Origin: Candidatus Melainabacteria bacterium
GTDB taxonomy: Bacteria; Cyanobacteriota; Vampirovibrionia; Caenarcaniphilales; Caenarcanaceae
DNA length: 64,000 nucleotides
NCBI GenBank assembly: GCA_005110395.1
Contig: DUDU01000059.1
Coordinates: forward strand, 5,877 to 69,876
Direction of reading: 5' to 3'
Every line of letters starts with the position of its first letter. The stretch's first letter is position 1. The translations under genes and the position numbers were made by a program. Of the stretch, positions 3,061 through 62,264 are shown piece after piece. A model generated the notes under the pieces. It saw only the letters and a list, made by a program, of their open reading frames with translations, did no database searches and was not told the DNA's origin.

Positions 3061-3156
3061 AAACTGGCTTTGAAACTTCGCTTGCTATTCTAAATAACTT
3101 TTTCTCTTCACGATAAGCAAATTGGAACGTGGTGATAATGAATCAATTGCAATCTA

Positions 3157-10870: not shown

Positions 10871-11282
10871 AGACTTACTACAAGTGCCCTAAATTAACAT
10901 AGCTAGACTTTTGAAATGCGTCCGTAAAAACAAATGAATGAGTTAATCCAAGCAATATAAATTCACAAATATTAAATTTAAGTTAAATCATTACTTAATG
11001 CACTGTTAATATTTGAGATTTTGTATTATTCTTATATTAAATAGAAGTTATATTAATAGCTTATAGTTTCTGGTATTTTAGCTGTATCTTATATAGGTTT
11101 CGCTTTTAAATATAAAAAATGCTTATTAGTTTCGAAATTTTCAATTTAGACAGTTTCAAGTCATTACAGTGCTTACTTAAGCTGATTTTAAAGAGTTTAA
11201 GGAATCCTTATGTTGATTTGTCCTGCATATTGCACAGTGAAGCTGTAAATAGTCAATTTGGAATAACGGCTTTTTGTGAGGT

Positions 11283-15380: not shown

Positions 15381-15968
15381 CTATTTCAACAAAAAACTTT
15401 CAATTGTTTCCAGTACACCTGGCTTTAGCCAAAATAAGAGCAAATAGGCGAAGCAACCCAATGAGACTGGTAGTGCATAAGGCTGAATGCGACTTCTTTT
15501 AGTATCTTTTACATAAGTCCAATAATTTCCCAGCTTTTGAGAAGTCCTGCCGGCTGAGTTGAAATATATAAAGGCGGCTCTTAATTCGTTTAATAAAAAA
15601 GGAATTATTAAAAGGGCATTCAATAAGCTACCCAAAACAAAGACCCAGAGAAAATTTTTGATGCCTAGTATCAGCCCAAGTATTGCCAATAATTTCACGT
15701 CGCCAGCACCACCGAGTCTAAGCACAAATGGAATAAACAGAATCGCAAATCCAATTAGACATGCCAATAACCCATCCCAAAGATAATGCGGATTTGCAAA
15801 AACTAAAACAATTCGCAAAATCAAGGCTAAAACAAAAAATATCAAATTGTAAAGATTAGGAATCTTGCGATATTTCAAGTCAAATATAGCTGCACCTAGA
15901 GAAAATGCCACAGCAAGCCCAAGAAGAGAAAAATTAATAATAATCGTCTGGCTTTCATTGAAATTCAT
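15381..15968 (-). CDS. A24-family prepilin peptidase, short CpaA/TadV-like form with no N-terminal domain
   Basis: Catalytic Asp contexts FDLKYRKIPN and GGAGDVKLLAILG; polytopic membrane protein of 195 aa. Confidence 0.75.
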   Translation of the reverse strand: MNFNESQTIIINFSLLGLAVAFSLGAAIFDLKYRKIPNLYNLIFFVLALILRIVLVFANPHYLWDGLLACLIGFAILFIPFVLRLGGAGDVKLLAILGLILGIKNFLWVFVLGSLLNALLIIPFLLNELRAAFIYFNSAGRTSQKLGNYWTYVKDTKRSRIQPYALPVSLGCFAYLLLFWLKPGVLETIESFLLK

Positions 15969-24905: not shown

Positions 24906-26753
24906 CTAATAATTTGCTGTTTGAAAAACATAATATTTACCGTCTTGAGCTATTAATCCATGAGCATATAAATGAGGATATTTCAGTCTTATTGAGTCCA
25001 AATGAGATTTGGTAACAACTATTAGACTATTAGAAGCTTTTACTATTTTCTCGGTAGATTCTGGCAAATGACATGAATGTGAAATCGATTTATGCGAGCA
25101 GGTTTTGAAGCATTGGCTGACCAAAGTTGATTGAGTGTAAAAATACCAAGAATAAGGAATATCATCTCCCCAAAAAGAAACATGTTTAGAAGCATAATCA
25201 GGAAGTTTTGTTTTTATGTCTTGGAGAACAGCTTTCATCGATTTATTCTCACCGATTGAGGTAGATAGTGGACCATACCAAAAAGCCATAATCGAAGGAA
25301 TTCCAATTGCTGCCACAAGAACCAATAGACAGAATATCCTCTGAGAGCGCTCTCTGACCACGAACCCAATTCCAAATGCAATGATAATCATAGTAATTGC
25401 GCAAGTCATAATAAGCAGCCTTGGCATTTGATAAGGAAAGCCAGCACTATAAGAAATAGCTCCCATTGCAATCACTAAAACTGAAAGAACTATATAAACC
25501 AAGCTCAGTGAGTGGTTAAATAAAATATTTAGAATAAAATGGCTTGAAACAATATCGTCATTTGAATATTTGCCAGTCTTGAAATTATGTATGGTTATGC
25601 TGAGAAAGCGCCCGCAAAGAATGGCCAGAGCTGGAAGAGTTCCCACCAAATAAGTCATTAGAATTGAGCGAGCCATAGTAAAGAATAATGGAGAAAAAAT
25701 AGCCCAACTCAAAATGAAAGAAACACGAAAAGGTAAATTATTAAGTCTTGTAAAAAGTGTTTTGATTATTTCAAAAGGCTTAAAAGAAGAATCTTGAGAA
25801 AGACTTGGTGCAAAATATTGCTTCCAAAGTGCAAATAGAAAAGGTAAAAGAAAAAAACTCCAAGGTATAAATGCACCTAATCCAAAAAGCCATGACATTC
25901 CATGAGGCTTAACATGTCCATTTCCATAACGATCTCCATAGTTTTTGATCAAATAACGTCCAAAATTTTCTTGCAGGAAAAAATATGACAGAAAATCAGG
26001 ATTAGCTTTTTGTACAGCTAGGTACCATGGAATTGCAAGAACTATGCCTATTACAAAAACAATAATCCAATTAACGGCGAAAGCATATTTTATAGTTTTG
26101 TTCCAACCTTGAGATATACCATGAATAAATAAAACCCCAAGAAACAAGACAATTGAGAGAGGTCCTTTATTCAGCATCCCCAGGCCAAAGAAAATACCTA
26201 AAGAAATTTCATAAAGAAACTTTTGCCAGGGTTGTTTTTGCTCTTTTGCTTTTAATATCGATAAATAAGCCCAAATACTTCCAGTCAAAGTAAGACAAAC
26301 CATCATATCCAAGCTAACCGTGCCTGCTTGTATAAAAAAGAAAATGCAGGAATTTAATACTAAGGTTGAAAGAATGGCAGTACGCTTGTCGTAAAGCTTT
26401 CTGCCGATGAGGAAAGTAAATAAAAGCGTTAATAAACTCTCTAGAAAATTAGGAAATCTAGCGGCAAATTCATTACTTCCAAAAAATTTATATGAAGTTG
26501 CAATGAGCCAGAAAGAAAGAGGCGGCTTGCCAAGAAAAGGTTCATCAAAAAAAGGAAGTCTAGGCGTTATCCAATCCTGGTGAAGAATTATTTCCTGAGC
26601 AATACTTGCATAACGAGTCTCTGTCGTATCGAATAGTGGCGAGAGGCTTAAAGAAATCAATCTGAGAAAAACCGTAAATGCCAAAACTAGAAAACACAAA
26701 ATGAAAAAATAGTTTTTTGACTTTTCTTTAGTCTTTTTGATTTCAGAACTCAT
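24906..26753 (-). CDS. GT-C glycosyltransferase, family 39/83 (ArnT/PMT_2-like)
   Basis: TTETRYASIAQEI...PFLGKPPLSFWLIA loop 1; polytopic, 615 aa. Confidence 0.8.
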   Translation of the reverse strand: MSSEIKKTKEKSKNYFFILCFLVLAFTVFLRLISLSLSPLFDTTETRYASIAQEIILHQDWITPRLPFFDEPFLGKPPLSFWLIATSYKFFGSNEFAARFPNFLESLLTLLFTFLIGRKLYDKRTAILSTLVLNSCIFFFIQAGTVSLDMMVCLTLTGSIWAYLSILKAKEQKQPWQKFLYEISLGIFFGLGMLNKGPLSIVLFLGVLFIHGISQGWNKTIKYAFAVNWIIVFVIGIVLAIPWYLAVQKANPDFLSYFFLQENFGRYLIKNYGDRYGNGHVKPHGMSWLFGLGAFIPWSFFLLPFLFALWKQYFAPSLSQDSSFKPFEIIKTLFTRLNNLPFRVSFILSWAIFSPLFFTMARSILMTYLVGTLPALAILCGRFLSITIHNFKTGKYSNDDIVSSHFILNILFNHSLSLVYIVLSVLVIAMGAISYSAGFPYQMPRLLIMTCAITMIIIAFGIGFVVRERSQRIFCLLVLVAAIGIPSIMAFWYGPLSTSIGENKSMKAVLQDIKTKLPDYASKHVSFWGDDIPYSWYFYTQSTLVSQCFKTCSHKSISHSCHLPESTEKIVKASNSLIVVTKSHLDSIRLKYPHLYAHGLIAQDGKYYVFQTANY

Positions 26754-27833: not shown

Positions 27834-28691
27834 ATGCAAAAGAAATCATTTATCTCTTTAATTAGTGTTCTTACATTATGCTTGACATTGCCTATATGCT
27901 CAGATGAAGCTTCAGAATGGGGATATGCAAAGTCGACAGGTTCAGACAATTGGTCCAAAATCAAAACTGAATATGAGCAATGCAAACAAGGTCATCATCA
28001 ATCCCCAGTAAATATTAAAAGCTTTGTATATAAGAAAGATAATAATTTCAATATTCAATTTAATTACAAGTCTTCCCATGAAGTCATTCTCAATAATGGA
28101 CATACAGTAGAGCTTTTATATGATGAAGGTAGCTATATAACTTTTCAAGGAAGCCAATACCGATTGATTCAATTTCATTTTCATACTCCTTCTGAGCATT
28201 TAGTCAAAGGAAAGCATTATCCTCTCGAAATGCATTTAGTTCATAAAAATATAGACAATTCATCTTATTTGGTTATAGCGGTTTTCTTTGAAAGAGGTAA
28301 AGAAGATAAATTCTTGAATGAATTTATTCATGATGTACCAAAAAAGTTAGACAAAAAAGAATTTGCAAAAAACATTAGCGTAGTAGATCTTTTAACTGAT
28401 ATTGAGACTGAATCAAGCCTGCAAAAGGATTTACTAAAGCCAAAACAAAATCAATCACTTACAAAAATTAATATCAGTAGAATAATTCAAGCAAAAGCTA
28501 AATTCTGGACATATGAAGGTTCACTTACAACCCCACCATGTACCGAATCCGTGAGATGGGTTATTCTAGAACATCCCTTAACCGCTTCTGCTGAACAAAT
28601 AGAAAAGCTTAGAAAAGCAGAAGGTATAAATGCTAGACATACACAAAAGCTTTATGAGAGAAAAGTTGAAGAATTCATTAATGCCGTTTGA
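27834..28691 (+). CDS. Alpha-class carbonic anhydrase, secreted
   Basis: Signal peptide; WGY...QSPVNI; zinc-ligand His in HFHTPSEH and EMHLVH. Confidence 0.85.
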   Translation: MQKKSFISLISVLTLCLTLPICSDEASEWGYAKSTGSDNWSKIKTEYEQCKQGHHQSPVNIKSFVYKKDNNFNIQFNYKSSHEVILNNGHTVELLYDEGSYITFQGSQYRLIQFHFHTPSEHLVKGKHYPLEMHLVHKNIDNSSYLVIAVFFERGKEDKFLNEFIHDVPKKLDKKEFAKNISVVDLLTDIETESSLQKDLLKPKQNQSLTKINISRIIQAKAKFWTYEGSLTTPPCTESVRWVILEHPLTASAEQIEKLRKAEGINARHTQKLYERKVEEFINAV

Positions 28692-32977: not shown

Positions 32978-33216
32978 TTGCTTTGCTAATTTATTTGGGA
33001 TTTACAGAAAATTATGAGTAATCAAGTATGCCATGAGCGAACGGCTATCACAAGTATGCACCTGAGGCAATGGTCTATCACAATTTAGACAGGAGCTCAA
33101 ATCTATTCGTAAATGCTAATGAATAGATTTCTAAAATTCATAATCAGAGTAAAAATAAGCAAATTTTCTTCTTGTTAACTTAATCAATCAAAAAATTTTA
33201 GGCTAATATATTTAAA

Positions 33217-33300
33217 CCGTTGAATGCGATGTGAATCAGCGAACCTGGTCAGGGGGGAAACTCAGCAGCCATAAGTTTGTGAAGCAGGTGCTTTCAACGG
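33217..33300 (+). ncRNA. ffs: Signal recognition particle RNA (small 4.5S type)
   Basis: CCUGGUCAGG-GGG-GAAA-CUC-AGCAGCCAUAAG matches the conserved helix-8 (domain IV) motif; closing stem ccgttgaa/ttcaacgg (8 bp). Confidence 0.65.
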
Positions 33301-33333
33301 CTCCATGATTAATTCATGTTTCAGTAAGATTAA

Positions 33334-40971: not shown

Positions 40972-43900
40972 TTAATCATCAAACTTAACCTTAGGTAAAT
41001 TATTCACTATATCCACTGTTTGCATACTCACATTGATAATACTCAAAAGTAAATCTAAAATATATCGTGGTTTTCCCGTTTCCGTTGCCCAATCGTTCGG
41101 ATCGTTTTTAATACCGCTCTCTTTGTGTACTGTTACTTGATAGCGTTCCATTATCCATTCAATCGCACTTTTTCCATTTACTACATATTGATATGCTTTT
41201 TCTGGAATATGTTCTATCGTGATTTGAGAATTATAAATAATCTTCTCTTTCTGTCCTTTGGCTGGGAACCGCATCTTTTCTACTCGATAATTTAAGTATT
41301 CTAATTCGTCTTTGTTTACCTGCTCTAAAGTATCTTTCATTGATAATGGACTAAGTAGTGTTATCACATCTGGCGAAGGTGGAACTGTTTCATAATTCAA
41401 ATGTAATTCTGCTAATTGTCTTCCTGCTTTGCTAAATGCCCAAAAGTCTTTCACATCCTCTAATAATGGCAATCTTGGCAACATTTTCTTTAAATCATTA
41501 GAAAATTTTTCTCTGTATTCCTTGCTGTGCAGAAAACCATAAACATAATAAAAAATATCTTCTTTGCTTACATTTTTACCGTATTGTTTTTTTGCTCTCT
41601 CTAAAATGAAATCACTGATTGCATCTCTGCGGATATATTTTTGTTCGCCAGTGGCATCAAATAAATTTAGTTTTTCCTGTTTTGTGTTGTTTTCTTCATA
41701 GTAATAAAGTGGGAAACATTGGCAAGCTGACAGCAAGCCCAGATCTGGAATGTTATTTACAATTAATGATGAATGAAATTTTGAATCTCCTGTGCCTGGG
41801 ATACAAATCAAAATATTTTCAATATTATTTTCAGGAAATAAAATAGGGAGCTTGGCAAGATCATTAACAATTTGTCTATCATAGAATATGTTCATCTTTG
41901 AAAATGGTCTATAATGCCCCATTCGCATCTTCCTGTTACTAAAAATATACTTTTTGCCTTTTACTAAATCATCTCTTAAGGCTCTTGACCAACTAATTTT
42001 AGTCTCGTTAGAATCAATAAAATCTTCAACTTTTGGTTTTGAAATCAAAGATGAATAATCATCAACTTGCTGATTGTAAAAATCCATTGTTCTTCTGGAA
42101 TTTAAAAGAACAGCATCTTTTGAGTAATTATAAACCCAAGCATCTCTGTTTGTTTTGACTCCATTAGAGTACAAAGGGACAAAGAAAGTACTTTTATTCT
42201 GCTTATCATCTTTATCACCTAAAGGAATATAATTTTCAAAAGCATCATTCCTAACACTGATCCAATCATTATGTTCATTAGGTTCTAATACTTTCAACGG
42301 TAAATCTGGATTTCCAAAGGATTTAAAATTACTGATGGTTTTGAGCTTATCTTCACGATTTAAATAATCACCAATGTCATAGTAATGAATACTTGCTTTT
42401 TCTGTTTTTATATCTGGATTTTTAACTAACAACGTTATTGAAATTGTATCTCTACACCCTGAACCAAAAACGTTACCTTTTTCTTTTTGTCTTAATTCAC
42501 CACTTGTCCTAGCATTGCCCCTCAAGTTGAACACATAAATTGAGGTAAATTCTTCCTCTATTGATTTGCGGAAACCATCAGCACTATTACTATCAATCCA
42601 GTTACCATTAGAAACAAAACATATAATACCTCCTGTTTTATCTAATCTATCTGCACTCCATCTAAAAGCTTTTATATAGCTGTTATAAAGAGAGTTTTTA
42701 TTTGTAGCACTAGTAAGCTTTGCATAAGTATCAGCGATGCGGTTATTTAGCTTTGGATATGCCTGATTTTGTGCATTGTCATTAGCAGAGGTCTGTCCGG
42801 CAGAATAAGGCGGATTACCCATAATAATACGCAAGGGGGCTTTTTGTTGTTTTTGTACTCTCTCTGAGTTTTGAGGAAACATTTCAGAGAATAATTTTTG
42901 ACCTTCTTCTGTTTCCCCAAGCTGAAAAGTATCAGTTAAGCATATACCTTCAAAAGGGAAATATTTTTCTTTTCCAATTCCATCATCAGGATCAGGTGTA
43001 GCGTCATGATAAGCATTTTCAATATTGATAGTTGCGATATAGTAAGCCAATAGAACAATTTCATTAGCATGAAGCTCTTGGTTGTATTTTCTATCTAAAT
43101 CTTTTTCTTCAATCAATCCACTCTGAAACAATCGAACCATAAAAGTACCAGTACCAGTGAATGGATCGAGTATATGAACATTTTCATCGGAGATAGAACG
43201 ATTAAATTCCTTTTTCAAAATATCATTGACTGAATGTATGATGAAATCAACTACTTCAACAGGGGTATAAACAATACCTAGTTTTTCCACCATTTTTGGA
43301 AAAGCTGTTTTAAAGAACTTATCGTACAACTCAATAATAATGCGTTGTTTCCCTTCAGCATTATCAATGTCAGAGGCACGAATTCTAACTGATTCATAAA
43401 ACTTTTGAAGTTCTTCTGTGTCTTTTTCTATGATCTTTTCTTCCAATAAATCCAACATTTTCTGCATAGACCTACTAATTGGATTGTTTTTCACGAAAGA
43501 ATATCCTTCAAACAAAGCATCGAATACTGGTTTTGTGATTATATGTTGAGATAGCATTTCAATAGCTTCATTCTGAGAAATGCTGGGATTTATGTTTTGA
43601 TGCAGCCCTTCTAAAAAAATATTAAATTCTTTCTGATGTTTTGGATTTTCATTAATAATTTTAGTAATGCGTTCTGTTTGTCTTGTAGCAATATCAGCTA
43701 CTGATTTAGCCCATTGTTCCCAATATCTTTTGTCACCGACTTTCTGAACCATTCGGGCAAATACCACTGATTGTAATTGTTGAAATTGCAGTGATAGCTG
43801 TTCAGAGATATTTTTAGATGATGGAATATTCCCCGTATCTGGATAGACTGGATTCCCCTCTCTATCAAATGAAATCTCAGGACGACCAACTAAAATTTGT

Positions 43901-45903
43901 TCGGGTTTATTTTTATTGAGTTCAATTTTATTTACAGTTGCATTGAAACGATCATCATGAGCCCTAAGTGCATTCAATACAGTCCAAACAACTTTATATC
44001 TTTCATTATCATTCAGCGCCTGATCAGGCTCAACATTTGAAGGAACAACAATTGGAATAATGATATAGCCATATTTTTTATTGGGGGCTTTTCGCATAAC
44101 CCGACCAACAGACTGGACTACGTCAACTTGTGAATTTCGAGCGGATAAGAATAAAACCGCATCCAAAGAAGGTACATCAACTCCTTCACTAAGACAGCGT
44201 ACATTTGTTAAAATTCGACATTCTCTTTCTTCTGGTTCATCTTTCAGCCAAGATAATAATTCATTTCTTTGAGTAGCATTCATTGAGCCGTCTATGTGCT
44301 TTGATGATACTAACTGCATTGAGCTTTGTTTTTCTGTAGGTAACTCAGAAATATAACTATCAGTTGCAATATTTAAAGTATTTGTTATTTTTTTTGATAC
44401 TGCGATACTTTGACAAAAAGCAACTGCTCTTCTCATTGGCTCTGGATCGGTTTCTTTTATAATCCCTTCATCCCCTAGAATTTGTTTTGAAAGTGCATTA
44501 ATACAGCCTATTAATTTCGAAGCATCATCAGTATTAATTTCATTTTCTTTGTCCATTATCATTTTTTGGACGGCTGGCGGTACATCATTCTCGTTGAGAG
44601 TCAGTATGAGAACCTTATAATCAGCTAATAAATCTTTCTCTACTGCTTCACCAAAACCGATTCTATATATTTCTTCACCATACAAACTGACATCATCCAT
44701 TGAACACAAAGTAGCTTCTGCTTGTGCGGCTTTACTCTTTGTTTCACCATCATATAATCGAGGAGTAGCAGTCATATAAAGGCGTTTTTTTGCTTTTATA
44801 AAATCATTGTTATGAACTTTAGTAAATGCACTTTCATCTTCATCAGCCAATGAAACTCCAGTAGTACGATGTGCTTCATCACAAATAATCAAATCAAACT
44901 CTGAAAATTCTGGATTGTATTTAGCTATTTCTTTTTGGGCTTTTGAAATAACTTCAATAGACTGATAAGTAGAAAAAACAACAGTTAAGCCATTATTTGA
45001 TTTTATTTTCAGGCATTTAAACTGGTGCAAAATACTTTTCACATCAGTAGAAGCTGGATATGCTAAATCTAAAACTGAGGATGTATCAATATCTTCTAAT
45101 TTTTTTCTTTTTTTTGTTATTTCAGGATCCGAACAAATACATATTGCATTGATTGGTTCTTTAGCATCTGCATACCATTCATTGAGAGTTTGCCCTAATA
45201 ATGCAATAGAAGGGACTAAGAACAATATTAAGCCTTTACCTTTAGTTTCATTTTCTGCAATACGAAGAGAAGTAAAAGTTTTCCCAGTACCACAAGCCAT
45301 AATGAGTTTACCTCTATCATTAGCTTGTAAATGTTCATTAGTTTTATTCAGAGCTTCTATTTGATGATGTCGTAATTCTTTTTTTTGTATTCTAGCTTCT
45401 TGTCCACAAATCCCATTCTCTAACTTACCCCAATCAATAGGAGAATTTATGAGATCATACAATCCCAATTTCATTACAGGTATTTGTTGATTCTCAAAAC
45501 TTTTTTCAGCATTAATTGAAAATGATTTACCTGTGGTATCAATCCAAAGTCTATACGCAAAAGATGTTGTTTTACAATCTTCTCCCTTGAATGAACGTCC
45601 AGAGGTAGTAATGAAAGTATCAACTTCTTTTTTGTCGATTATAGTACCTTCTTTGTAGCATTTACACTGTATAGCCCAATAATCACCTGTATGGGTTAAT
45701 GCAACTAAATCAATGCCAGTATCCTGTCCACCAAATTCTTGTTTACTAGGAAATTCTTCCCATAACCAAACTTTTTTTAGATTATCTGCATATTTAGGAT
45801 CTGTAAGCAAATAGGCTTTCATTAAGCGTTCAAATTTTGCACCCTTATCTCTTTCAGAAAAGGCAAATTTACGGTACTTTTCTAAGATTTGTTGAAAGCT
45901 CAT
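40972..45903 (-). CDS. Type ISP single-polypeptide restriction-modification enzyme (Mrr-like nuclease + SF2 helicase-like ATPase + gamma-class N6-adenine methyltransferase + target-recognition domain; LlaGI/LlaBIII-like)
   Basis: N-terminal PD-(D/E)xK GIDLVALTH..DYWAIQCKCY; Walker A MACGTGKTFT; DEAH LIICDEAHRTTG; methyltransferase motif I ILDPFTGTGTF; motif IV MGNPPYSAG; 1643 aa. Confidence 0.85.
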   Translation of the reverse strand: MSFQQILEKYRKFAFSERDKGAKFERLMKAYLLTDPKYADNLKKVWLWEEFPSKQEFGGQDTGIDLVALTHTGDYWAIQCKCYKEGTIIDKKEVDTFITTSGRSFKGEDCKTTSFAYRLWIDTTGKSFSINAEKSFENQQIPVMKLGLYDLINSPIDWGKLENGICGQEARIQKKELRHHQIEALNKTNEHLQANDRGKLIMACGTGKTFTSLRIAENETKGKGLILFLVPSIALLGQTLNEWYADAKEPINAICICSDPEITKKRKKLEDIDTSSVLDLAYPASTDVKSILHQFKCLKIKSNNGLTVVFSTYQSIEVISKAQKEIAKYNPEFSEFDLIICDEAHRTTGVSLADEDESAFTKVHNNDFIKAKKRLYMTATPRLYDGETKSKAAQAEATLCSMDDVSLYGEEIYRIGFGEAVEKDLLADYKVLILTLNENDVPPAVQKMIMDKENEINTDDASKLIGCINALSKQILGDEGIIKETDPEPMRRAVAFCQSIAVSKKITNTLNIATDSYISELPTEKQSSMQLVSSKHIDGSMNATQRNELLSWLKDEPEERECRILTNVRCLSEGVDVPSLDAVLFLSARNSQVDVVQSVGRVMRKAPNKKYGYIIIPIVVPSNVEPDQALNDNERYKVVWTVLNALRAHDDRFNATVNKIELNKNKPEQILVGRPEISFDREGNPVYPDTGNIPSSKNISEQLSLQFQQLQSVVFARMVQKVGDKRYWEQWAKSVADIATRQTERITKIINENPKHQKEFNIFLEGLHQNINPSISQNEAIEMLSQHIITKPVFDALFEGYSFVKNNPISRSMQKMLDLLEEKIIEKDTEELQKFYESVRIRASDIDNAEGKQRIIIELYDKFFKTAFPKMVEKLGIVYTPVEVVDFIIHSVNDILKKEFNRSISDENVHILDPFTGTGTFMVRLFQSGLIEEKDLDRKYNQELHANEIVLLAYYIATINIENAYHDATPDPDDGIGKEKYFPFEGICLTDTFQLGETEEGQKLFSEMFPQNSERVQKQQKAPLRIIMGNPPYSAGQTSANDNAQNQAYPKLNNRIADTYAKLTSATNKNSLYNSYIKAFRWSADRLDKTGGIICFVSNGNWIDSNSADGFRKSIEEEFTSIYVFNLRGNARTSGELRQKEKGNVFGSGCRDTISITLLVKNPDIKTEKASIHYYDIGDYLNREDKLKTISNFKSFGNPDLPLKVLEPNEHNDWISVRNDAFENYIPLGDKDDKQNKSTFFVPLYSNGVKTNRDAWVYNYSKDAVLLNSRRTMDFYNQQVDDYSSLISKPKVEDFIDSNETKISWSRALRDDLVKGKKYIFSNRKMRMGHYRPFSKMNIFYDRQIVNDLAKLPILFPENNIENILICIPGTGDSKFHSSLIVNNIPDLGLLSACQCFPLYYYEENNTKQEKLNLFDATGEQKYIRRDAISDFILERAKKQYGKNVSKEDIFYYVYGFLHSKEYREKFSNDLKKMLPRLPLLEDVKDFWAFSKAGRQLAELHLNYETVPPSPDVITLLSPLSMKDTLEQVNKDELEYLNYRVEKMRFPAKGQKEKIIYNSQITIEHIPEKAYQYVVNGKSAIEWIMERYQVTVHKESGIKNDPNDWATETGKPRYILDLLLSIINVSMQTVDIVNNLPKVKFDD
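41006..41065. repeat. Direct repeat copy B: the genuine 3' coding end of the Type ISP gene
   Basis: See copy A; the two copies are 753 bp apart. Confidence 0.7.
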
Positions 45904-56653: not shown

Positions 56654-57595
56654 CTATTTTTTATCTAAAAATTGTTTTTCAATTTCGATTCTCTTTTTAG
56701 CAGCTTGAACTTTAATCTTTTTTAGAGCATCTTCTTTAAGGAAAAGCTTTGCACGATTTCTAAGCCAAGGTGATGTTCTGCTGACCATCATTGCGTACTC
56801 ATAGTTAGGAAATTCAGGATTACGTGTGTGGCTATTTGCAATTCTTTGAAAATCTTCTTCACCGAGTCTACTTGCTTTGAAATTATATTCACAGACAGGA
56901 ATTGGAACTAGAGCTTTTTTCTGTCCATCTTTAAATTCTCGGAATAAATAGGAAGTAACTTTTCCATACAGCGTGTCAGTACTAGGATCATATTCAACTT
57001 CTCTATAAAAGACTTGTGCTTTAAAATCTCGATTGTCCTTTGGTGAAGGTAGCCATGCGAAATTCCATACCAAACGATTACCTTTGGCCTTCATTGCATA
57101 ATATGCCATTTTGACATCACCATAACTCGTCAGGTCATAACCTTTGGTTGCACTTTCAAGAGTAATAAATCCAATATGTTCTATTTCATTCGGTGCAGGT
57201 TTGGTTTGATCAACTTTGAATACTCTTCCTTGAGCATTGTAATAATTTTTTTGCCAAGTGACTCCTTTTTGGAGAGTATATCCATCAGCAGGAGTAATAA
57301 TAAACATCCAATGCCCCTTCCAGGAATTCCCTTTAGGAGCTGGCTTTTGTACGATTCTCTTCATAATATCTTTGTGAGCAGGAGACAAAGTATTGTTGTT
57401 TCCTGGCTTCCAAGGAGGAAGAGAATTAATGTAGGCCTCATAATCTTTATTTGGATTTTTGCTTTCAGTCCCAGTTGATGAATTAGTTGAAGCTGAATTA
57501 TTGTCTTTAGTAATAGTTGATTTATTACAGCTTGATACAAAAAAGACCAAAATAATTATTGAAACAATTTGAAGCTGAATTATCTGTTTTTTCAT
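56654..57595 (-). CDS. Lipoprotein (313 aa)
   Basis: IILVFFVSSC lipobox; follows the Cys-rich gene pair on the same strand. Confidence 0.6.
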   Translation of the reverse strand: MKKQIIQLQIVSIIILVFFVSSCNKSTITKDNNSASTNSSTGTESKNPNKDYEAYINSLPPWKPGNNNTLSPAHKDIMKRIVQKPAPKGNSWKGHWMFIITPADGYTLQKGVTWQKNYYNAQGRVFKVDQTKPAPNEIEHIGFITLESATKGYDLTSYGDVKMAYYAMKAKGNRLVWNFAWLPSPKDNRDFKAQVFYREVEYDPSTDTLYGKVTSYLFREFKDGQKKALVPIPVCEYNFKASRLGEEDFQRIANSHTRNPEFPNYEYAMMVSRTSPWLRNRAKLFLKEDALKKIKVQAAKKRIEIEKQFLDKK

Positions 57596-57669: not shown

Positions 57670-59181
57670 CTAATTCATTGCAGCGAATACTGTCGTTTCA
57701 TCTCCATGCATACCATCAAACCATAAGTCGAAAGTATCTCCTCCATATATAACTTTGTTACCAACTTTTTGTTTAAAACCATTACGAAGATAAGGATAAG
57801 CTGCAGATTCACCAATCGCAATCGGGGATTGATTATTAGCAGTTGGAATTCCAATCTCAACTACTTGCAGATCACTCAGTTTTTCAATTTCGGATGGTTG
57901 TGAAATCGCATCTTCATTTAAATCAAACCAAATCACTAAGTCTTTTAATTCATCGCCTTCAATTAAGTTATTGTGATCCTTATCTCTTAGATTGGATAAA
58001 GCAGCATATCCATTTTTGTATTTTTTGCCATTTGTATATTCTCCGAATAACTCTTTTCCATTATCAATAGAGCCGTTGTGATTGAAGTCAGAGGCAAGCA
58101 AACCAATTTTTGTAGTGCCCGGAATCCATGAAGTCCAGAGAGAGTTTAAACCATTGTATTTGAATGAGACTTTGGAATTGCCTATTAGATCAAGATCTTG
58201 ATTAGAACCGAATTGGCCAAACCGAAGAACTAATGGGCATCCACAAGCAGCCGCAGGATCACCGTGATAATCATCGACAGGTACATCATGTATGAGGGTT
58301 CCATCAGGTGCAGTGACACAGGTATATCTCGATGTTATATTAGGCACATATCCAGTTGGAAGATCGCAGCCAGCGGTTTTGGCACAAGATAATACTTCTT
58401 CTGGAGCCGCACATTTGCATAATCCAGGATTTTGAACTGCTGGATTAAAAACACAAGAATTGACTATGCATGTCTTGCAATTAGTACTGGCATTTGCAAC
58501 AGTACACGAGATTGAACTATCATTGGAGCATTTGCCTGAAGTAGGACAAATTTCGCAAACACTACTTGCATTGGACGTTGTACAAGAGCATGTTCCAGAT
58601 GTGCAAGGGCAAGTTCCAGTAGGAGTTGGAGTTGGAGTTGGTGTTGTTGGTGTTGTGGGAGTTGGTGTTGGTGTAGATGGCGGAGGTGATGGAATTGTGC
58701 ATGTTGTGGCTGTACAAGAAGAGAGAGAACAACTATGGTCAGTACAGACTTTACAAACGGGGTTTGCATCTGTTGATGTGCAAGTACAGGCACTATTGTT
58801 GTCTGGACATAAACATGAACCATGACAAATGGCACTTCCATTTTGGCCGATGCAAGTTCCAGACGTAGGAGGCACCAAGGGAGGTATTTCACAACTGGCT
58901 GAAGCACAGTTATCATCTCTAAGGCAACATACCTCACATGATTTGGAAGAACCAGTTATACAATCTGCTGAAGGACCAACGGTGTGCCCTGGACCAACTC
59001 CGGCTCCAGGTGAACTTCCGGGTCCAGCTCCACCACCACAGGCCGCTGGCTTTGCACAAATTCCACCACCGATATCAACTTCTCCAGGAGGGCATGAATA
59101 TGCTTTTTGTATTGAAGCATTTTGCCAAAAACAAAATAAGCCAAAAAATAATACAAAAATAAAGACGTAAAGTTTTTTCAT
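57670..59181 (-). CDS. Secreted cysteine-rich protein (503 aa) with PT-repeat linker and C-terminal EF-hand/dockerin-like Ca-binding pair
   Basis: Signal peptide; >50 Cys in CxC/CxxC arrays; PTPTPTTPTTPTPTPTPT linker; DFNHNGSIDNGKE and DKDHNNLIEGDE loops. Confidence 0.65.
   Translation of the reverse strand: MKKLYVFIFVLFFGLFCFWQNASIQKAYSCPPGEVDIGGGICAKPAACGGGAGPGSSPGAGVGPGHTVGPSADCITGSSKSCEVCCLRDDNCASASCEIPPLVPPTSGTCIGQNGSAICHGSCLCPDNNSACTCTSTDANPVCKVCTDHSCSLSSCTATTCTIPSPPPSTPTPTPTTPTTPTPTPTPTGTCPCTSGTCSCTTSNASSVCEICPTSGKCSNDSSISCTVANASTNCKTCIVNSCVFNPAVQNPGLCKCAAPEEVLSCAKTAGCDLPTGYVPNITSRYTCVTAPDGTLIHDVPVDDYHGDPAAACGCPLVLRFGQFGSNQDLDLIGNSKVSFKYNGLNSLWTSWIPGTTKIGLLASDFNHNGSIDNGKELFGEYTNGKKYKNGYAALSNLRDKDHNNLIEGDELKDLVIWFDLNEDAISQPSEIEKLSDLQVVEIGIPTANNQSPIAIGESAAYPYLRNGFKQKVGNKVIYGGDTFDLWFDGMHGDETTVFAAMN
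58612..58676. repeat. Imperfect hexanucleotide (gttggw) tandem repeat encoding the Pro-Thr linker
   Basis: gttggagttggagttggtgttgttggtgttgtgggagttggtgttggtg; in-frame simple-sequence repeat. Confidence 0.6.
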
Positions 59182-59446
59182 TGATTTGGCTGGAGCTGAA
59201 GCTTAGTAATTTAAATTAGTTAACTAAATTCTAACTAGATGAGTAAATCAAAACAAGGTCTTTATGAACAACCAACAAAGGCTCATCTGTGCAATATCAC
59301 TAGTTCTTCATTTCTTGAGAAGGCAGAGTGCCTTATATTGCACAAAGACACGCTTATAGAAAATCTTTGAGCAGTTATAGTGACATCTCAGTAAATTTTC
59401 AACATTGGTTTTCAATAGAAAGATTTAGTGTAATTACCATTGATGA

Positions 59447-61696
59447 TTAGGGAGAACATGAAATCTTATCTCCATTCTTGTATACATAATCTTTTCCATA
59501 GCCACCTCTTGGCTCAGCTACACTGATTACTGGACAATATTTTCCAGTGCATGGAGTTCGTTGATTGCCGCAACATGGAGGTGGGGTTAATTCTACTGGA
59601 TAGTGTGCAGCTTCAGAGCAAAACTCATCACAAACACCGCAACATCCCATAATAGGTCCTCCCACTCCCGCAGCAACGCAATACCCTTTTCCTGAGATCT
59701 TTACATATCTTCCTCCCTCAGGACAGCATGAGCTTTTTGGTATACAAGCTGGATCGCTTGGATCAGTACAAACTTGGGGTGCGCAACATTCACCTTTTAG
59801 GTTTCCATTTGAACATTCAGGGAATCCTCCAGGAACGGGAATGTGAGAAGAGTCATGAAGAGTTGTTGCAAAAGTATATCCTGGCAAATCACCGCTAGGA
59901 ACTGCTTTGTAGGCCCAACTGTTTTCACAGTATCTCGTAACTCCACCTACAACACAACTGTGGCTGTGTGCAATAGTATTATTAGCGCCACCAAAATCAA
60001 CAGTTCTTTTGCCACAATAAGCTATTAATTCAGCTGGTTCAGCATCTTTACAGCAATGTCTTTCCTTGCAATCTCTTCTATATTTGCACTGAATTTGGAA
60101 CAACAATGGGTTCAATTTATAAAAAGAGGTGTTTGTCCACCATTGCCCCCGCATAGTTACGCTTGCTTCCTGAATAGTACTTTTGTCCTTGCAAGTACCG
60201 TATTGTCCACATTGCGAACTTCCTGGATCGCAAATACTGCATACCGAGTTGTAAGGAATAAGCTGATCCAAAGCACTAGATAAACTATTGACAGTTTTTG
60301 CACCATTTCCCGCAAGATTTGCTGCATCATCTTGTTCTTTTTGAACCAAGTCAGGTTTAATCACTTTGGTGGTGGCATCAAATGAACTGTCTTCGTATGG
60401 ACCTTTCCATTTCCTTACAGACTGAGATCCATTTCTGCATGATACTTGAACATCTTCATTACTTGCAGTTTTTCTTCTAATAATTACGCTACTACCGCTT
60501 CCATCCAAGTCAGTAATTTCACCACTCATATTAGATAACTCAATGCCACCACTTCTTGGATGCTCCTGAGTCTTGACAAAAAAGTAACGATCCGCATTAC
60601 CTAAATAATCAACATCATTCACAGTTTTTGCTGGCTTACTTGCAGTTAAGTTTCGTCCATATGCATCACGCCCCATAGACGAATATTTCAAGCCAATCAA
60701 AATTAGTGGATCTATATCACCGCAATTGTATATTTTTGCAATTCCAGGGAAATTAGTGTTATTTCCAGTGCAGTCGCTGGAATTTGTATTTGTAATATTT
60801 GTTGGACAAGAACAATTACTATCAGGACAGGCATCTGAAACTTCTCCCTTTCTAGAATTGGGTGTTTGATCAACTGCATATGAGTTAGTTCCCAAAATTG
60901 TGCTGCTTTCATCTGGCCTACTTGTTCCCGCCGTAAAAGGTAAACAGTTTTTACTACTATTTATAAGCGTGGTTTGGCTTGTTGCACCTGTGACTCCACA
61001 ATCATCAGTGCTGCAAAAAACGAATGGTCTAACACCTGAACTCAACAATGATTGATTGAGCTTTATTGCTTCTCTTTGACCAACCGACCCACCTACAGTT
61101 CCGATAGAAGCCCCTCTACCCTCAAGCCATCCACCAGAGCCAAAGTTACCACCATCTGCATTCATGTACATTCGCTTCAATATCACTGGCCAACATCCAG
61201 CGCAATGAACAACGGTATAGTAAGTTATTTGATTTGTTGCAGGATTTCTTAGAGCTACGCAACCACTGAATTGAGAACCGCTTGATGATCCAAAAAAACT
61301 TGCGGGAGTTTCTATTCCTAAACCAATGAGTCTTTGTCTAACCGTAACTCCACTTGCTGCTTCTGTTATTTCATTAAATTCAGCATATTTAGCCTGACCT
61401 GTGCTGACGGCACTTATATAATTATCTCTGACTTTTTTATTGTATCCTGGTGGCATAGCATTGACTTCCGCCGCTGCAAGCTTGCACCTTTCTTCAACTT
61501 CATCTGAACCCAATTTATTATTAGTAGAAGCTTTCACCGCAATTTGTTGAGCAGCGGTATTCAGCGATGACTGAAGCCAAAAAAGCATTATAAATTCGAA
61601 CACCATCAAAAAAACTATGGTGTACAAAAGTATAAGGACTGGTATGTGAACAGGTACCGCGCCTTTTTTTGTTCTTGAATTAAAAGAATGAATCAT
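59447..61696 (-). CDS. Large cysteine-rich protein (749 aa) with TadE/TadG-like N-terminal pseudopilin-type anchor
   Basis: KKGAVPVHIPVLILLYTIVFLMVFEFIMLFWLQSSLNTAAQQIA resembles the TadE-like domain (GAVAIEFAL...), with E to H at the usual Glu. The rest is a Cys-rich extracellular domain. Confidence 0.6.
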   Translation of the reverse strand: MIHSFNSRTKKGAVPVHIPVLILLYTIVFLMVFEFIMLFWLQSSLNTAAQQIAVKASTNNKLGSDEVEERCKLAAAEVNAMPPGYNKKVRDNYISAVSTGQAKYAEFNEITEAASGVTVRQRLIGLGIETPASFFGSSSGSQFSGCVALRNPATNQITYYTVVHCAGCWPVILKRMYMNADGGNFGSGGWLEGRGASIGTVGGSVGQREAIKLNQSLLSSGVRPFVFCSTDDCGVTGATSQTTLINSSKNCLPFTAGTSRPDESSTILGTNSYAVDQTPNSRKGEVSDACPDSNCSCPTNITNTNSSDCTGNNTNFPGIAKIYNCGDIDPLILIGLKYSSMGRDAYGRNLTASKPAKTVNDVDYLGNADRYFFVKTQEHPRSGGIELSNMSGEITDLDGSGSSVIIRRKTASNEDVQVSCRNGSQSVRKWKGPYEDSSFDATTKVIKPDLVQKEQDDAANLAGNGAKTVNSLSSALDQLIPYNSVCSICDPGSSQCGQYGTCKDKSTIQEASVTMRGQWWTNTSFYKLNPLLFQIQCKYRRDCKERHCCKDAEPAELIAYCGKRTVDFGGANNTIAHSHSCVVGGVTRYCENSWAYKAVPSGDLPGYTFATTLHDSSHIPVPGGFPECSNGNLKGECCAPQVCTDPSDPACIPKSSCCPEGGRYVKISGKGYCVAAGVGGPIMGCCGVCDEFCSEAAHYPVELTPPPCCGNQRTPCTGKYCPVISVAEPRGGYGKDYVYKNGDKISCSP

Positions 61697-61924
61697 CCAT
61701 TAAATTGAATAATCTTAATAACCTTCAGTATTTCTTCCCTTAATCAATAGAGGGATAACTGAGCTTATTTCAATTGTATAAATTACCAGAGAGGATTGTT
61801 AAAAACCAACGAATGGATTATCCACCCACTTCATTGACAACTCTTTTATCTCCCGGATTCAAACTAACAATATATTGTGAGCAACTCCTAATGAATTTTG
61901 TACTCGAGGTTTAGTCAGACAAGA

Positions 61925-61948
61925 AAAATCTAAATCTAAATCTGAATC
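61925..61948. repeat. Hexamer tandem repeat (aaatct x3 + gaatct) ~230 bp upstream of the start of the TadE-like Cys-rich gene
   Basis: Read directly from the sequence. Confidence 0.5.
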
Positions 61949-62264
61949 TGAAATTCTTACAGCCTTGCTTGTCAACGATGGATTAAATGATATGCAAGGG
62001 AATTCACTAAATGTAGAAAAATCGAAAGTATTCAAGAATTTTAAGCGCAAAATCTGAGATTTACTTTTGTTTCAATTCTTTTATTGAAAAACTAAATCTC
62101 AGTTGGAAAAAAAATAATGAAACTTTTCAATTGATAAAATAAGGAGTAAGCTTTGTTTTTATGATTTAAAACTTAAGAAGTAAGTATTTATTCTCCAAGT
62201 TATTCAATCGAGTTAACAATTAAACTGAAAAGTATAAGTTTTGAAATAAAGGAAGATTAGCCTA

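Follow-up and report, generated by a model that had tools for sequence, protein, structure and literature searches.

[quoted passage not shown] In the literature, SPMs are described as exclusive to RTX proteins (PMC7078468). The D414A mutation of the nucleophilic Asp in FrpC abolishes both cleavage and coupling (PMC7846742); the only proven SPM chemistry requires a carboxylate. The searchable literature yielded no experiments on any SPM with Ser, Thr or Cys before the conserved Pro.

Here, we analyze two adjacent minus-strand genes, p1 (59447..61696; 749 amino acids) and p2 (57670..59181; 503 amino acids), in a 64-kb stretch of DNA (hereafter, the window) from a melainabacterium, a member of a non-photosynthetic lineage related to Cyanobacteria. 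A first-pass annotation had singled them out as tandem genes for Cys-rich proteins, an observation that we confirm: with 41 of 749 (5.5%) and 39 of 503 (7.8%) Cys, against 1.5% across window open reading frames (ORFs) of at least 200 amino acids, p1 and p2 are the two most Cys-rich ORFs of the window. The accompanying view of two envelope proteins is likewise supported, with export and disulfide formation predicted for both. The locally elevated G+C content (0.41-0.43 versus about 0.35) is real as well. All of the excess falls at codon position 2 (0.50-0.53 versus 0.36), and GC3 is normal (0.24-0.27 versus 0.26 +/- 0.03), so the rise reflects amino acid composition rather than foreign origin; p1 and p2 are native to this genome.

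The tail of p2 (residues 316-503; 57673..58236, minus strand) had been read as EF-hand or dockerin-like. As a family assignment this fails, given that EF-hand_7 gives E=0.44 and dockerin no match; what is found instead is an SPM. In a phmmer search, p2 residues 349-476 match the FrpC SPM (PDB 6sjw/6sjx) with E=1.5e-14, the tail scores 218 bits against a local SPM profile, and PF26745 ("SPM") is precomputed on P0012, a protein 98% identical to p2, and on all close p1 relatives. Judged by sequence comparison, the tail is an SPM homologous to the FrpC domain, which points to a different kind of function, namely Ca-triggered processing at an X-Pro junction. For the p2 tail, then, the first-pass remark that neither gene product could be placed in a known family does not hold.

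The correspondence with FrpC extends to individual residues (the "narrow port" residues, D579 and the Ca-loop boundaries of FrpC are as defined in PMC7078468). The module starts at Pro316, which aligns with FrpC Pro415 and opens a PLVL motif (PLAL in FrpC); the spacing from this Pro to the conserved Trp is 33 residues in both proteins, and hmmalign places C315-P316 in the profile columns of the D-P pair of RTX-type SPMs. Conserved positions include W352, W417, L378, G380, G391 and D485-L486, among which W352, W417 and D485 are equivalent by alignment to FrpC W451, W519 and D579. Three predicted Ca loops, all on the minus strand, were detected: D365-E377 (DFNHNGSIDNGKE; 58051..58089), D400-E411 (DKDHNNLIEGDE; 57949..57984) and D420-E431 (DLNEDAISQPSE; 57889..57924), corresponding to FrpC D462-E474, D499-D511 and D521-E532, respectively. 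The first two had been quoted in the first-pass annotation, which missed the third. The DxDxDG motif that follows the Pro, Ca site I, is missing from p2 and its relatives (RFGQFG), and the residue preceding the Pro (position -1) is Cys315 in place of the nucleophilic Asp414.

A sample of 79 genome loci provided 82 SPM domains for a survey of variation at this junction. All 82 have the Pro, preceded by Asp in 34, Ser in 26, Thr in 20 and Cys in 2; after clustering at 70% identity, 68 of 68 clusters have only these four residues at -1, although together they account for just 26% of residues in the sampled SPM proteins. Residue identity at the position of FrpC D478 changes in step with that at -1; D579 is retained. 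The D-P modules are all internal (34/34), 22 of them with at least three RTX repeat motifs downstream, whereas the 18 SPMs that lie within 45 amino acids of a seen stop codon are all of the S/T/C-Pro type (14 S-P, 3 T-P and 1 C-P), as are all SPMs at the C-termini of signal-peptide proteins in the 79-locus sample.

These patterns bear on the appreciable, if lesser, possibility that the p2 tail is a non-catalytic domain that folds or binds in a Ca2+-dependent manner, having lost self-processing, and lends the protein rigidity or provides docking at the cell surface, a reading close to the initial EF-hand/dockerin idea. The nucleophilic Asp, without which FrpC is not processed (PMC7846742), and Ca site I are both missing, and the three EF-hand loops are intact; the two Trp and the D579 equivalent would be needed for the fold in any case (PMC7078468). 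A purely structural role, however, leaves unexplained the invariant Pro, the restriction of -1 to D/S/T/C in all 68 clusters and the co-variation with position 478. Asn, Gly and Ala never occur at -1, even though the first two likewise make good capping residues, and a domain that stands at the very C-terminus of numerous passengers unrelated to one another is reminiscent of a sorting domain or pro-domain that can be removed.

The remainder of p2 begins with a predicted Sec-type signal peptide (residues 1-29; 59095..59181, minus strand), recognized by inspection (MKKLYVFIFVLFFGLFCFWQNASIQKAYS, followed by Cys) and shared with another SPM protein, P0013 (81% identity to p2 across residues 1-36). 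Next comes a Cys-rich passenger (residues 30-315; 58237..59094, minus strand) that contains CxC/CxxC arrays, ends in AAACGC315 and is interrupted by a PT linker (residues 164-188; 58618..58692, minus strand), the presence of which had been noted in the first pass. No homologs of the passenger were found apart from the near-identical strain, and an apparent internal repeat lacks significance. Downstream of p2, by 74 bp and in the same direction, lies p3 (56654..57595, minus strand; 313 amino acids), which had been called a lipoprotein gene, a prediction that inspection bears out (lipobox FVSS/C, the slash marking the putative cleavage site). Searches of Pfam, NCBIfam and PDB gave no match for p3, which bears no homology to the partner gene that lies downstream in the relatives; its place next to p2 is kept in strain L088. 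Membership of p3 in the p1-p2 system is uncertain, the tie being one of proximity.

The bulk of p1 is a conserved, predicted extracytoplasmic domain (residues 59-645; 59762..61522, minus strand; 28 Cys), defined from two family alignments, with the invariant motifs NCGDIDPL, W-EG-G (consensus WLEGRG), GECC, C-xx-C-xx-G-xxx-CG-xx-GTC and Y-RRDC-xxx-HCC. A word-index search retrieved 10 homologs, nine full-length and one without the N-terminus, that are 35-40% identical to p1 across residues 1-645, and 17 family representatives were identified among the 1.84 billion (1.84e9) proteins searched. Going by these searches, the family is small and lineage-specific, and its named members are from Melainabacteria/Caenarcaniphilales. 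Pfam, NCBIfam and PDB searches gave no match for p1 beyond N-terminal similarities to TadE (sub-threshold) and, weakly, to NCBIfam ComGG. AlphaFold2 modeling, a check proposed in the first pass, predicted a helix at residues 17-58; the ectodomain did not yield a usable model (pLDDT 39; below 50 past residue 200), and Foldseek returned zero PDB matches.

All 10 word-index homologs, and likewise three further close representatives, carry a C-terminal SPM with T-P or S-P at the junction, for a total of 13 closest relatives. In p1, a Cys-rich tail (residues 646-749; 59450..59761, minus strand; 13 Cys) stands where the relatives carry the linker and SPM. Conversely, each of the 14 top-scoring counterparts of the p2 SPM is part of a p1-like protein, and the p2 SPM falls into one neighbor-joining clade with these fused modules. 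The split layout is real because an independent assembly, strain L088, repeats the order Dxr-NifU, p1, p2, p3, ArgJ. By homology, p1 and p2 are counterparts of the halves of a single protein in sister genomes; the first-pass annotation was correct in describing two ORFs and missed the single-protein form. A functional link between p1 and p2 is, in our judgment, probable.

It is unlikely, by comparison, that p1 and p2 are unrelated neighbors, the former an SPM-less family member and the latter an independently secreted protein of the P0013 type. Such an arrangement would fit with the separate signal peptide of p2, in common with P0013, and with the 265-bp spacer between the genes (59182..59446). 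A simple scan of this spacer detected no minus-strand terminator-like site. The distant p1 family members (637-795 amino acids) lack the SPM entirely, so p1 may function without one, and the N-terminal part of p2 has no significant similarity to the linker of the relatives, which leaves simple gene fission as no more than a possibility. Nevertheless, the p2 SPM is nearest to the p1-fused SPMs and not to that of P0013, the adjacency and order of p1 and p2 are kept in the second strain, and the sole close-subfamily member devoid of an SPM, p1 itself, has one encoded directly downstream.

The N-terminal segment of p1 (residues 1-58; 61523..61696, minus strand) consists of a basic leader (R8, K10, K11), Gly12 and a hydrophobic helix; R8, G12, P15 and P19 are invariant in the family alignments. 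The TadE-like character ascribed to it earlier is a genuine resemblance, with PF07811 the best-scoring match in 10 of 10 family members; however, the score for p1, 14.3 bits for the whole protein and 17.8 bits for residues 1-205 (match at residues 21-53), and all other TadE scores in the family fall under the 22.9-bit cut-off. The ComGG minor pilin model matches with E=0.0028. Also present in the window is a short A24 prepilin-type peptidase of 195 amino acids (15381..15968, minus strand; PF01478, E=1.7e-13), as reported in the first pass; going by its co-occurrence in the window, this enzyme may process the p1 leader.

Taken further, these features would make p1 a minor pilin or pseudopilin: the A24 peptidase would cleave it, a Tad, type IV or type II secretion filament whose genes lie outside this region would carry it, and p2 would serve as an accessory adhesin. 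The invariant Gly12 fits the G/xxxxE register and the paralog P0010 has Glu at +5; in most family members, however, this position is His or Gln (His17 in p1). In agreement with the initial remark that no classical tad cluster is nearby, window ORFs of at least 150 amino acids, including those around the A24 peptidase, yielded no gene for Tad, type IV pilus or type II secretion components, and no pilus assembly genes adjoin the p1 homologs at the loci of five relatives. Foldseek of the p1 N-terminal model found no pilin-like fold, and roughly 690 amino acids of Cys-rich globular domain make a large load for a pilin subunit. We consider the pilin interpretation quite improbable, and the originally suggested display on a Tad-like pilus is not supported.

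With confidence slightly above even, we favor the view that the locus is a two-gene version of a Melainabacteria/Caenarcaniphilales envelope protein with a Ca-switched SPM. In the closest relatives, a single polypeptide combines a TadE-like anchor, a presumably disulfide-rich ectodomain some 600 amino acids long, a Cys/Pro-rich linker and the C-terminal SPM; here, p1 has the anchor and ectodomain, and p2, predicted to be exported separately, has the signal peptide, the Cys-rich passenger with its PT linker and the SPM. Both proteins would cross the inner membrane; the N-terminal helix would keep p1 in place there, or else the A24 peptidase would trim p1 after Gly12. The approximately 80 Cys of the two proteins would be oxidized outside the cytoplasm. 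Binding of Ca2+ to the three EF-hand-like loops would then fold the SPM, which would clamp the bond before Pro316 in the conserved narrow port, as in FrpC. The FrpC route is impossible in p2 because residue 315 is Cys rather than Asp. Most likely, the SPM would still process the junction, with the Cys315 thiol (a hydroxyl in the Thr/Ser-Pro relatives) as the nucleophile, and a (thio)ester-type intermediate would free the passenger or hand it over to another protein, for instance p1. Attack of a Ser, Thr or Cys side chain on its own carbonyl yields a strained four-membered ring, which counts against cleavage at Cys315, and we propose any cleavage at this junction tentatively, as somewhat short of an even chance.

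Among known systems, FrpC is the closest to p2. [quoted passage not shown] The differences are Cys315 for Asp414, the loss of Ca site I and Glu in place of D478. Furthermore, the p2 module forms the C-terminal end of a protein with a Sec signal and a Cys-rich passenger, whereas that of FrpC is internal, with RTX repeats and a type I secretion signal behind it, and RTX proteins are Cys-poor. The host, a melainabacterium, differs as well.

Uncharacterized signal-peptide proteins with C-terminal Ser/Thr-Pro SPMs, seen in the sampled loci and coming from Acidobacteriota, Myxococcota, Bdellovibrionota, Saccharimonadales and others, resemble p2 in the position of the module, the hydroxyl- or thiol-bearing residue ahead of the Pro, the absence of RTX repeats and, usually, one to three Cys within 15 residues upstream; their passengers vary. 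Unlike p2, most of them keep Ca site I (DxDxDG/N) and none has a p1-like partner, and Cys at -1 is found in only 2 of the 82 sampled SPMs.

The N-terminus of p1 resembles those of TadE/TadF pseudopilins (PF07811) and ComGG-type minor pilins in its short basic leader ending in an invariant Gly, its hydrophobic helix, which includes an acidic residue and the pattern A-x-x-x-A-x-x-A, and the A24 peptidase in the same genome. It departs from them in its sub-cut-off scores, the lack of Glu at +5 and of a tad locus, and the Cys-rich domain that follows the helix instead of a small pilin head.

Finally, the SPM might be functionally analogous to cis-autoproteolytic modules, namely inteins, hedgehog, GPS/GAIN, SEA and Ntn hydrolases, which employ Ser, Thr or Cys, and FlhB/SctU NPTH, with Asn-Pro: a strained peptide bond is converted by a nucleophilic side chain to an ester or thioester. 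These modules are related to the SPM neither in sequence nor in fold, and their nucleophile follows the scissile bond, whereas that of the SPM precedes the conserved Pro.

Two large cysteine-rich genes lie in tandem on the minus strand, as the first-pass annotation had stated: p1 (59447..61696), an open reading frame (ORF) of 749 aa with 41 Cys (5.5%), and p2 (57670..59181), an ORF of 503 aa with 39 Cys (7.8%). They are the two most Cys-rich ORFs of the window, where the mean Cys content of ORFs of at least 200 aa is 1.5%. The next gene, p3 (56654..57595, minus strand), encodes a predicted lipoprotein of 313 aa with the lipobox VSS/C and is followed by argJ. The local GC-richness noticed at first reading was also confirmed, the p1/p2 region having the highest G+C content of the window, and the excess is restricted to the second codon position, with third-position values (GC3) of 0.27 for p1 and 0.24 for p2 against a window mean of 0.26 ± 0.03. 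A foreign origin of the GC-rich patch was rejected because GC3 is normal; the excess at position 2 only, together with normal GC3, indicates that p1 and p2 are native and that the composition reflects their Cys, Gly, Pro, Thr, and Ala content. The N-terminus of p2 is, by inspection, a typical signal peptide, and its PT linker spans residues 164-188. The two Cys-rich halves of p2 resemble each other at about 2.7 standard deviations over composition-matched shuffles and less than in the best shuffle, and no internal repeat is claimed. Comparison of p1 and p2 with known Cys-rich envelope families, such as chlamydial OmcB, gave no match at E ≤ 1 in Pfam and NCBIfam or at E ≤ 10 among PDB sequences. 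Scans for promoters and terminators gave no useful information, promoter-like sites being rarer than in shuffled sequences.

Elsewhere, the window encodes a complete Type ISP restriction-modification enzyme with Mrr_cat_2, helicase, coupler, methylase, and specificity domains (40972..45903, minus strand), a eukaryotic-type (alpha) carbonic anhydrase (27834..28691, plus strand), and the bacterial small SRP RNA (33214..33306, plus strand; Rfam RF00169, 47 bits). A short DDE transposase ORF of 210 aa (10041..10673, plus strand) is probably an insertion sequence remnant; the 64 kb yielded no tRNA genes. A membrane protein resembling PMT-family protein mannosyltransferases (24906..26753, minus strand) might bear on the glycosylation of exported proteins rich in Ser/Thr, for example at the PT linker.

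Searches of the local Pfam copy and NCBIfam with p2 produced nothing significant. [quoted passage not shown] By homology, the p2 tail is assigned to the described SPM family, so the initial view that neither protein belongs to a described family was wrong for this part of p2. Nor is the tail EF-hand- or dockerin-like, as had been proposed: EF-hand_7 scored 11.4 bits (E = 0.44) against a cut-off of 30, dockerin gave no match, and a true dockerin was present only in P0016, an unrelated SPM protein.

In FrpC, the SPM comprises residues 415-591; Ca2+ folds the module, and the Asp414-Pro415 bond is twisted (PMC7078468). In the ensuing 'clip-and-link' reaction, attack of the Asp side chain on its own carbonyl cleaves the chain and leaves an Asp anhydride capable of acylating a lysine (PMC7078468); the D414A substitution abolishes both cleavage and coupling (PMC7846742). 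Pro316 of p2 corresponds to FrpC Pro415, with 33 residues to W352 and W451, respectively, in both proteins (PLVL versus PLAL), and in the profile alignment it occupies the Pro column of 82 other SPMs, RTX-type modules included. W352 and W417 are equivalent to FrpC W451 and W519, and the 'narrow port' residues of FrpC, together with D579, are kept as L378, G380, G391, and D485-L486 (roles according to PMC7078468), with Glu381 at the position of FrpC D478. The residue that precedes the SPM Pro is Cys315, where FrpC has the nucleophilic Asp; Thr or Ser is found there in the fused relatives, that is, single proteins with a p1-like N-terminal part and a C-terminal SPM. Furthermore, Ca site I of FrpC (DxDxDG after the Pro; D419/D421/D423/G424) is replaced in p2 by RFGQFG. 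Of the Ca-binding-like loops, a pair had been recognized initially and both are present, but the count is three, each of 12-13 residues and canonical: residues 365-377 (FrpC D462-E474), 400-411 (FrpC D499-D511), and 420-431 (FrpC D521-E532), the last of which had been missed. Thus, the p2 SPM has three predicted Ca2+ loops, compared with the four EF-hand-like sites of the family. The module ends 18 residues from the stop codon, with no RTX repeats after it, in a protein that starts with a signal peptide. Judged from these sequence features, the p2 SPM fails the defining catalytic feature of its family, Asp-Pro, and the usual RTX context.

A word-index protein search retrieved 10 homologs of p1 besides the identical cluster, with 35-40% identity over p1 residues 1-645. 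All 10 carry PF26745, their lengths range from 883 to 1152 aa, and the named ones come from Candidatus Caenarcaniphilales metagenome-assembled genomes (MAGs); one, P0011 (883 aa), is without its N-terminus. In an exhaustive profile search, 1.84 billion representatives yielded 17 proteins in the p1 family, including three further close members, which bear an SPM, and about 10 distant members of 637-795 aa, which have no SPM and keep the N-terminal segment as well as the motifs P-Y-Y-x-x-C-P-x-G-T-P-x-C-G-Y-F-G, NLDG, and H-C-C. The family alignment opens with a conserved N-terminal segment. Next comes a domain of about 590 aa, in which many Cys are invariant and which is marked by the motifs NCGDIDPL, W-EG-G (consensus WLEGRG), C-xx-C-xx-G-xxx-CG-xx-GTC, Y-RRDC-xxx-HCC, and GECC. 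As a third part, the relatives have a variable Cys/Pro-rich linker that leads to the SPM, the entry to which is always Thr-Pro or Ser-Pro. Instead of this third part, p1 ends with a 104-residue Cys-rich tail. The p1 ectodomain has no relative in Pfam, NCBIfam, or PDB sequences, and AlphaFold2 gave no usable model of it (pLDDT <50 past residue 200); it is an undescribed, lineage-restricted family. The locus offers a first handle on these large envelope proteins of uncultured non-photosynthetic cyanobacteria.

The N-terminus of p1 had been described as TadE-like. PF07811 (TadE) aligns with residues 21-53, scoring 14.3 bits with the whole protein and 17.8 bits with residues 1-205 against a gathering cut-off of 22.9; TadE is the top match in 10 of 10 family members (best E 0.0013), so the resemblance recurs but all scores stay below the Pfam cut-off. 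NCBIfam gave a weak match to the minor pilin ComGG. Four residues, R8, G12, P15, and P19, are invariant in the family, which exceeds the need of a plain signal anchor and is in register with the prepilin motif G/xxxxE, although the +5 position after Gly12 carries His in p1 and Gln in most of the family, the paralog P0010 alone having Glu. The AlphaFold2 model of residues 1-205 (pLDDT 69) comprises a long helix and a four-stranded sheet and has no structural neighbor in the PDB. Given the sub-threshold TadE scores, the invariant residues, His or Gln at +5, and the lack of a PDB neighbor, a TadE/pseudopilin-like leader is plausible but unproven. P0033 (NCBI MFN5539562.1), labelled 'Candidatus Melainabacteria bacterium' and in the same 90% cluster as p1, is annotated from the equivalent of Met37 (713 aa), which removes the conserved leader together with half the hydrophobic helix; family-wide conservation of the N-terminus favors the Met1 start.

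Display of p1 on a Tad-like pilus, also suggested initially, is unsupported. The A24 prepilin peptidase ORF at 15381..15968 is genuine (PF01478, E = 1.7e-13); as anticipated, there is no tad/cpa cluster nearby, Pfam scans of window ORFs of at least 150 aa being negative for Tad, type IV pilus, and type II secretion genes, and no filament or secretion genes are conserved beside the p1 relatives in their loci (L001-L008). The earlier interpretation is partly right; what stands of it is the tandem of predicted exported Cys-rich proteins with a Ca-binding-type tail and a TadE-like N-terminus. The peptidase gene is a short orphan whose end lies 55 bp from that of a convergent ORF of 1347 aa (11283..15326, plus strand) with no Pfam match, 4 Cys, and no evident pilin-like N-terminus.

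Several observations connect p1 with p2. The p2 SPM is 34% identical over 189 residues to the C-terminal SPM of the fused relative P0002. When it was compared with 102 SPM sequences, the 14 best matches (85-124 bits) were all fused to p1-like proteins; the P0013-type SPM scored 77 bits and every other at most 73 bits, and a neighbor-joining tree likewise groups the p2 SPM with those of p1-like proteins. Hence, the sole member of the close p1 subfamily that lacks an SPM has the SPM of this subfamily on the next gene, and p1 and p2 look like two halves of one system; their fusion in the relatives predicts that they act together. The order Dxr-NifU, p1, p2, p3, ArgJ is repeated in an independent assembly (L088, 3013..7036, against 57670..61696 of the window), in which, among the flanking genes compared, nifU, p3, and argJ are 100% identical and p1 has 2 substitutions. 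The six substitutions in p2 all fall in residues 302-438, accompanied by a 2-residue length change in the PT linker; one is D308N, which exchanges D-P for N-P or the reverse seven residues ahead of the SPM Pro. These changes are too few for dN/dS between the two strains to carry meaning.

Clean gene fission would make the mature N-terminus of p2 (CPPGEVDIGGGIC...GPG..SPG) homologous to the linker of the relatives, and this was rejected, the profile score being no better than with shuffles. With its own signal peptide and a passenger that has no significant similarity to that linker, p2 is not a simple fragment. Its signal peptide is shared with P0013, a secreted SPM protein (81% identity over 36 residues). 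In the SPM-bearing relatives, a conserved gene comes next downstream, often with overlapping stop and start codons (L001 12933..14378; L007 13234..14577; L005 11808..12875; L002 ~10107..11132), and its secreted product of 355-481 aa is Cys-rich at the C-terminus and matches no Pfam family. The window lacks this gene and has p2 in its position; p3 was considered as its homolog and rejected, as no similarity to the L001 (481 aa), L007 (447 aa), or L005 (355 aa) products was detectable, and p3 has no relative among PDB sequences, FrpD included. The Caenarcaniphilales MAG GCA_947494115.1 (L005 and L008) encodes two fused p1-SPM paralogs, P0006 and P0010, each with its own downstream partner gene. 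A related metagenomic contig, L004, has two SPM proteins close together (1..1221 and 2122..3462), the second of which, P0013, has a different passenger from that of p2 and no SPM Pro (…VS-LVSLIF). The SPM that best matches that of p2 (47% identity) belongs to a p1-like protein whose long linker is of the (PTN)n type (L009, 1..2304); its contig, binned as 'Synechococcales cyanobacterium', is either mis-binned and melainabacterial or a sign that the family reaches photosynthetic cyanobacteria.

The SPM family was surveyed in one genome per species with the peptide pattern ID[ND]GxELFG, which gave 79 loci and 82 SPM domains with an alignable N-terminus. The initial SPM alignment proved too diverse for scanning genomes and a narrower one replaced it, so the sample is biased toward carriers of this pattern and toward similarity to the query; a word-index search with the p2 SPM alone gave one match. 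The Pro is present in all 82 modules, preceded by D in 34, S in 26, T in 20, and C in 2, so that S/T/C-Pro accounts for more than half of the sampled SPMs. Among 68 clusters at 70% identity, the counts are D 29, S 22, T 15, and C 2, with no other residue in any cluster, whereas these four make up only 26% of the residues in the surveyed proteins. The 34 D-P modules all have an internal position, 22 of them with at least three RTX nonapeptide motifs downstream. Conversely, all 18 SPMs with an observed stop codon no more than 45 residues away are S/T/C-Pro (14 S-P, 3 T-P, and 1 C-P). These 18 have varied passengers, with a recognizable N-terminal signal peptide in about 10 and 2 of the passengers being HExxH metalloprotease-like, and their hosts are Acidobacteriota, Thermoanaerobaculia, Myxococcota, Bdellovibrionota, Saccharimonadales, and the melainabacterial family. 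Every sampled C-terminal SPM on a Sec-exported non-RTX protein, p2 included, is S/T/C-Pro. At the position of FrpC D478, the residue covaries with the one that precedes the Pro: D predominates in Asp-Pro modules, S occurs in Thr-Pro modules, and Ser-Pro modules have mostly N, followed by D or E. D579 is retained throughout the sample. A Cys within 15 residues upstream of the SPM occurs in 15 of 26 S-P and in none of 34 D-P modules, a difference that may merely reflect Sec-exported, disulfide-bonded passengers. The zinc-protease-like passengers are joined to C-terminal Ser-Pro SPMs in a Saccharimonadales MAG (L081 1558..2865) and a Thermoanaerobaculia MAG (L054 3338..4534), and another passenger (L035) has FN3-like Thr/Ser-rich repeats, which indicates that the SPM is combined with many kinds of secreted protein.

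We envisage that p1 and p2 would be exported, with p1 anchored or trimmed after Gly12, that the approximately 80 Cys of the two proteins would form disulfides, and that Ca2+ would fold the p2 SPM through its three loops, clamping the Cys315-Pro316 junction. The anhydride route of FrpC is excluded in p2 because the Asp is missing. Our tentative preference, held at somewhat less than even confidence, is that the module might keep a chemically different self-processing, by thiol or hydroxyl through an ester or thioester; the invariant Pro, the exclusively nucleophilic side chains before it, the intact port and D579, and the placement at the extreme C-terminus of diverse passengers argue for retained processing. 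Almost as likely is a non-catalytic role of the SPM in Ca2+-dependent folding or docking, a reading that accommodates the loss of the Asp, and inactive S/T/C-Pro modules would represent a catalytic module turned into a Ca2+ sensor. Under retained processing, the p2 passenger would be released or transferred, the obvious partner being p1. The broadest proposal, which we regard as unlikely, is that S/T/C-Pro SPMs form a second, undescribed Ca2+-triggered class that would use a hydroxyl or thiol nucleophile via an ester, thioester, or lactone, excise itself, and covalently attach diverse passengers to the cell envelope without an enzyme, here coupling the p2 passenger to the p1 ectodomain. Should these modules be active, both their self-processing chemistry and their enzyme-free attachment of proteins to bacterial surfaces would be new.

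To our knowledge, the FrpC SPM is the only natural domain that makes a protein anhydride from an ordinary peptide bond on a calcium signal, and it underlies protein-ligation tools (NeissLock). In the literature, the SPM is regarded as restricted to RTX toxins and as requiring Asp-Pro. The structural study considers it exclusive to a subset of RTX proteins (PMC7078468), and we found no description of non-Asp SPMs in the searchable literature. In our biased sample, the comparison shows the same module on predicted Sec-exported, disulfide-rich proteins of many phyla, with the Asp replaced only by Ser, Thr, or Cys. The closest analogue of the p2 junction Cys in a classical RTX context is an internal Cys-Pro SPM (…ENQGC/PIILDLDGNG), with Ca site I intact, in an RTX-type protein of a Gammaproteobacteria MAG (L075 3260..6046). 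Unlike the SPM of FrpC, that of p2 lacks the catalytic Asp-Pro, the internal RTX position, and the type I secretion signal, and the locus makes it directly testable whether SPM chemistry reaches past Asp-Pro and RTX toxins.
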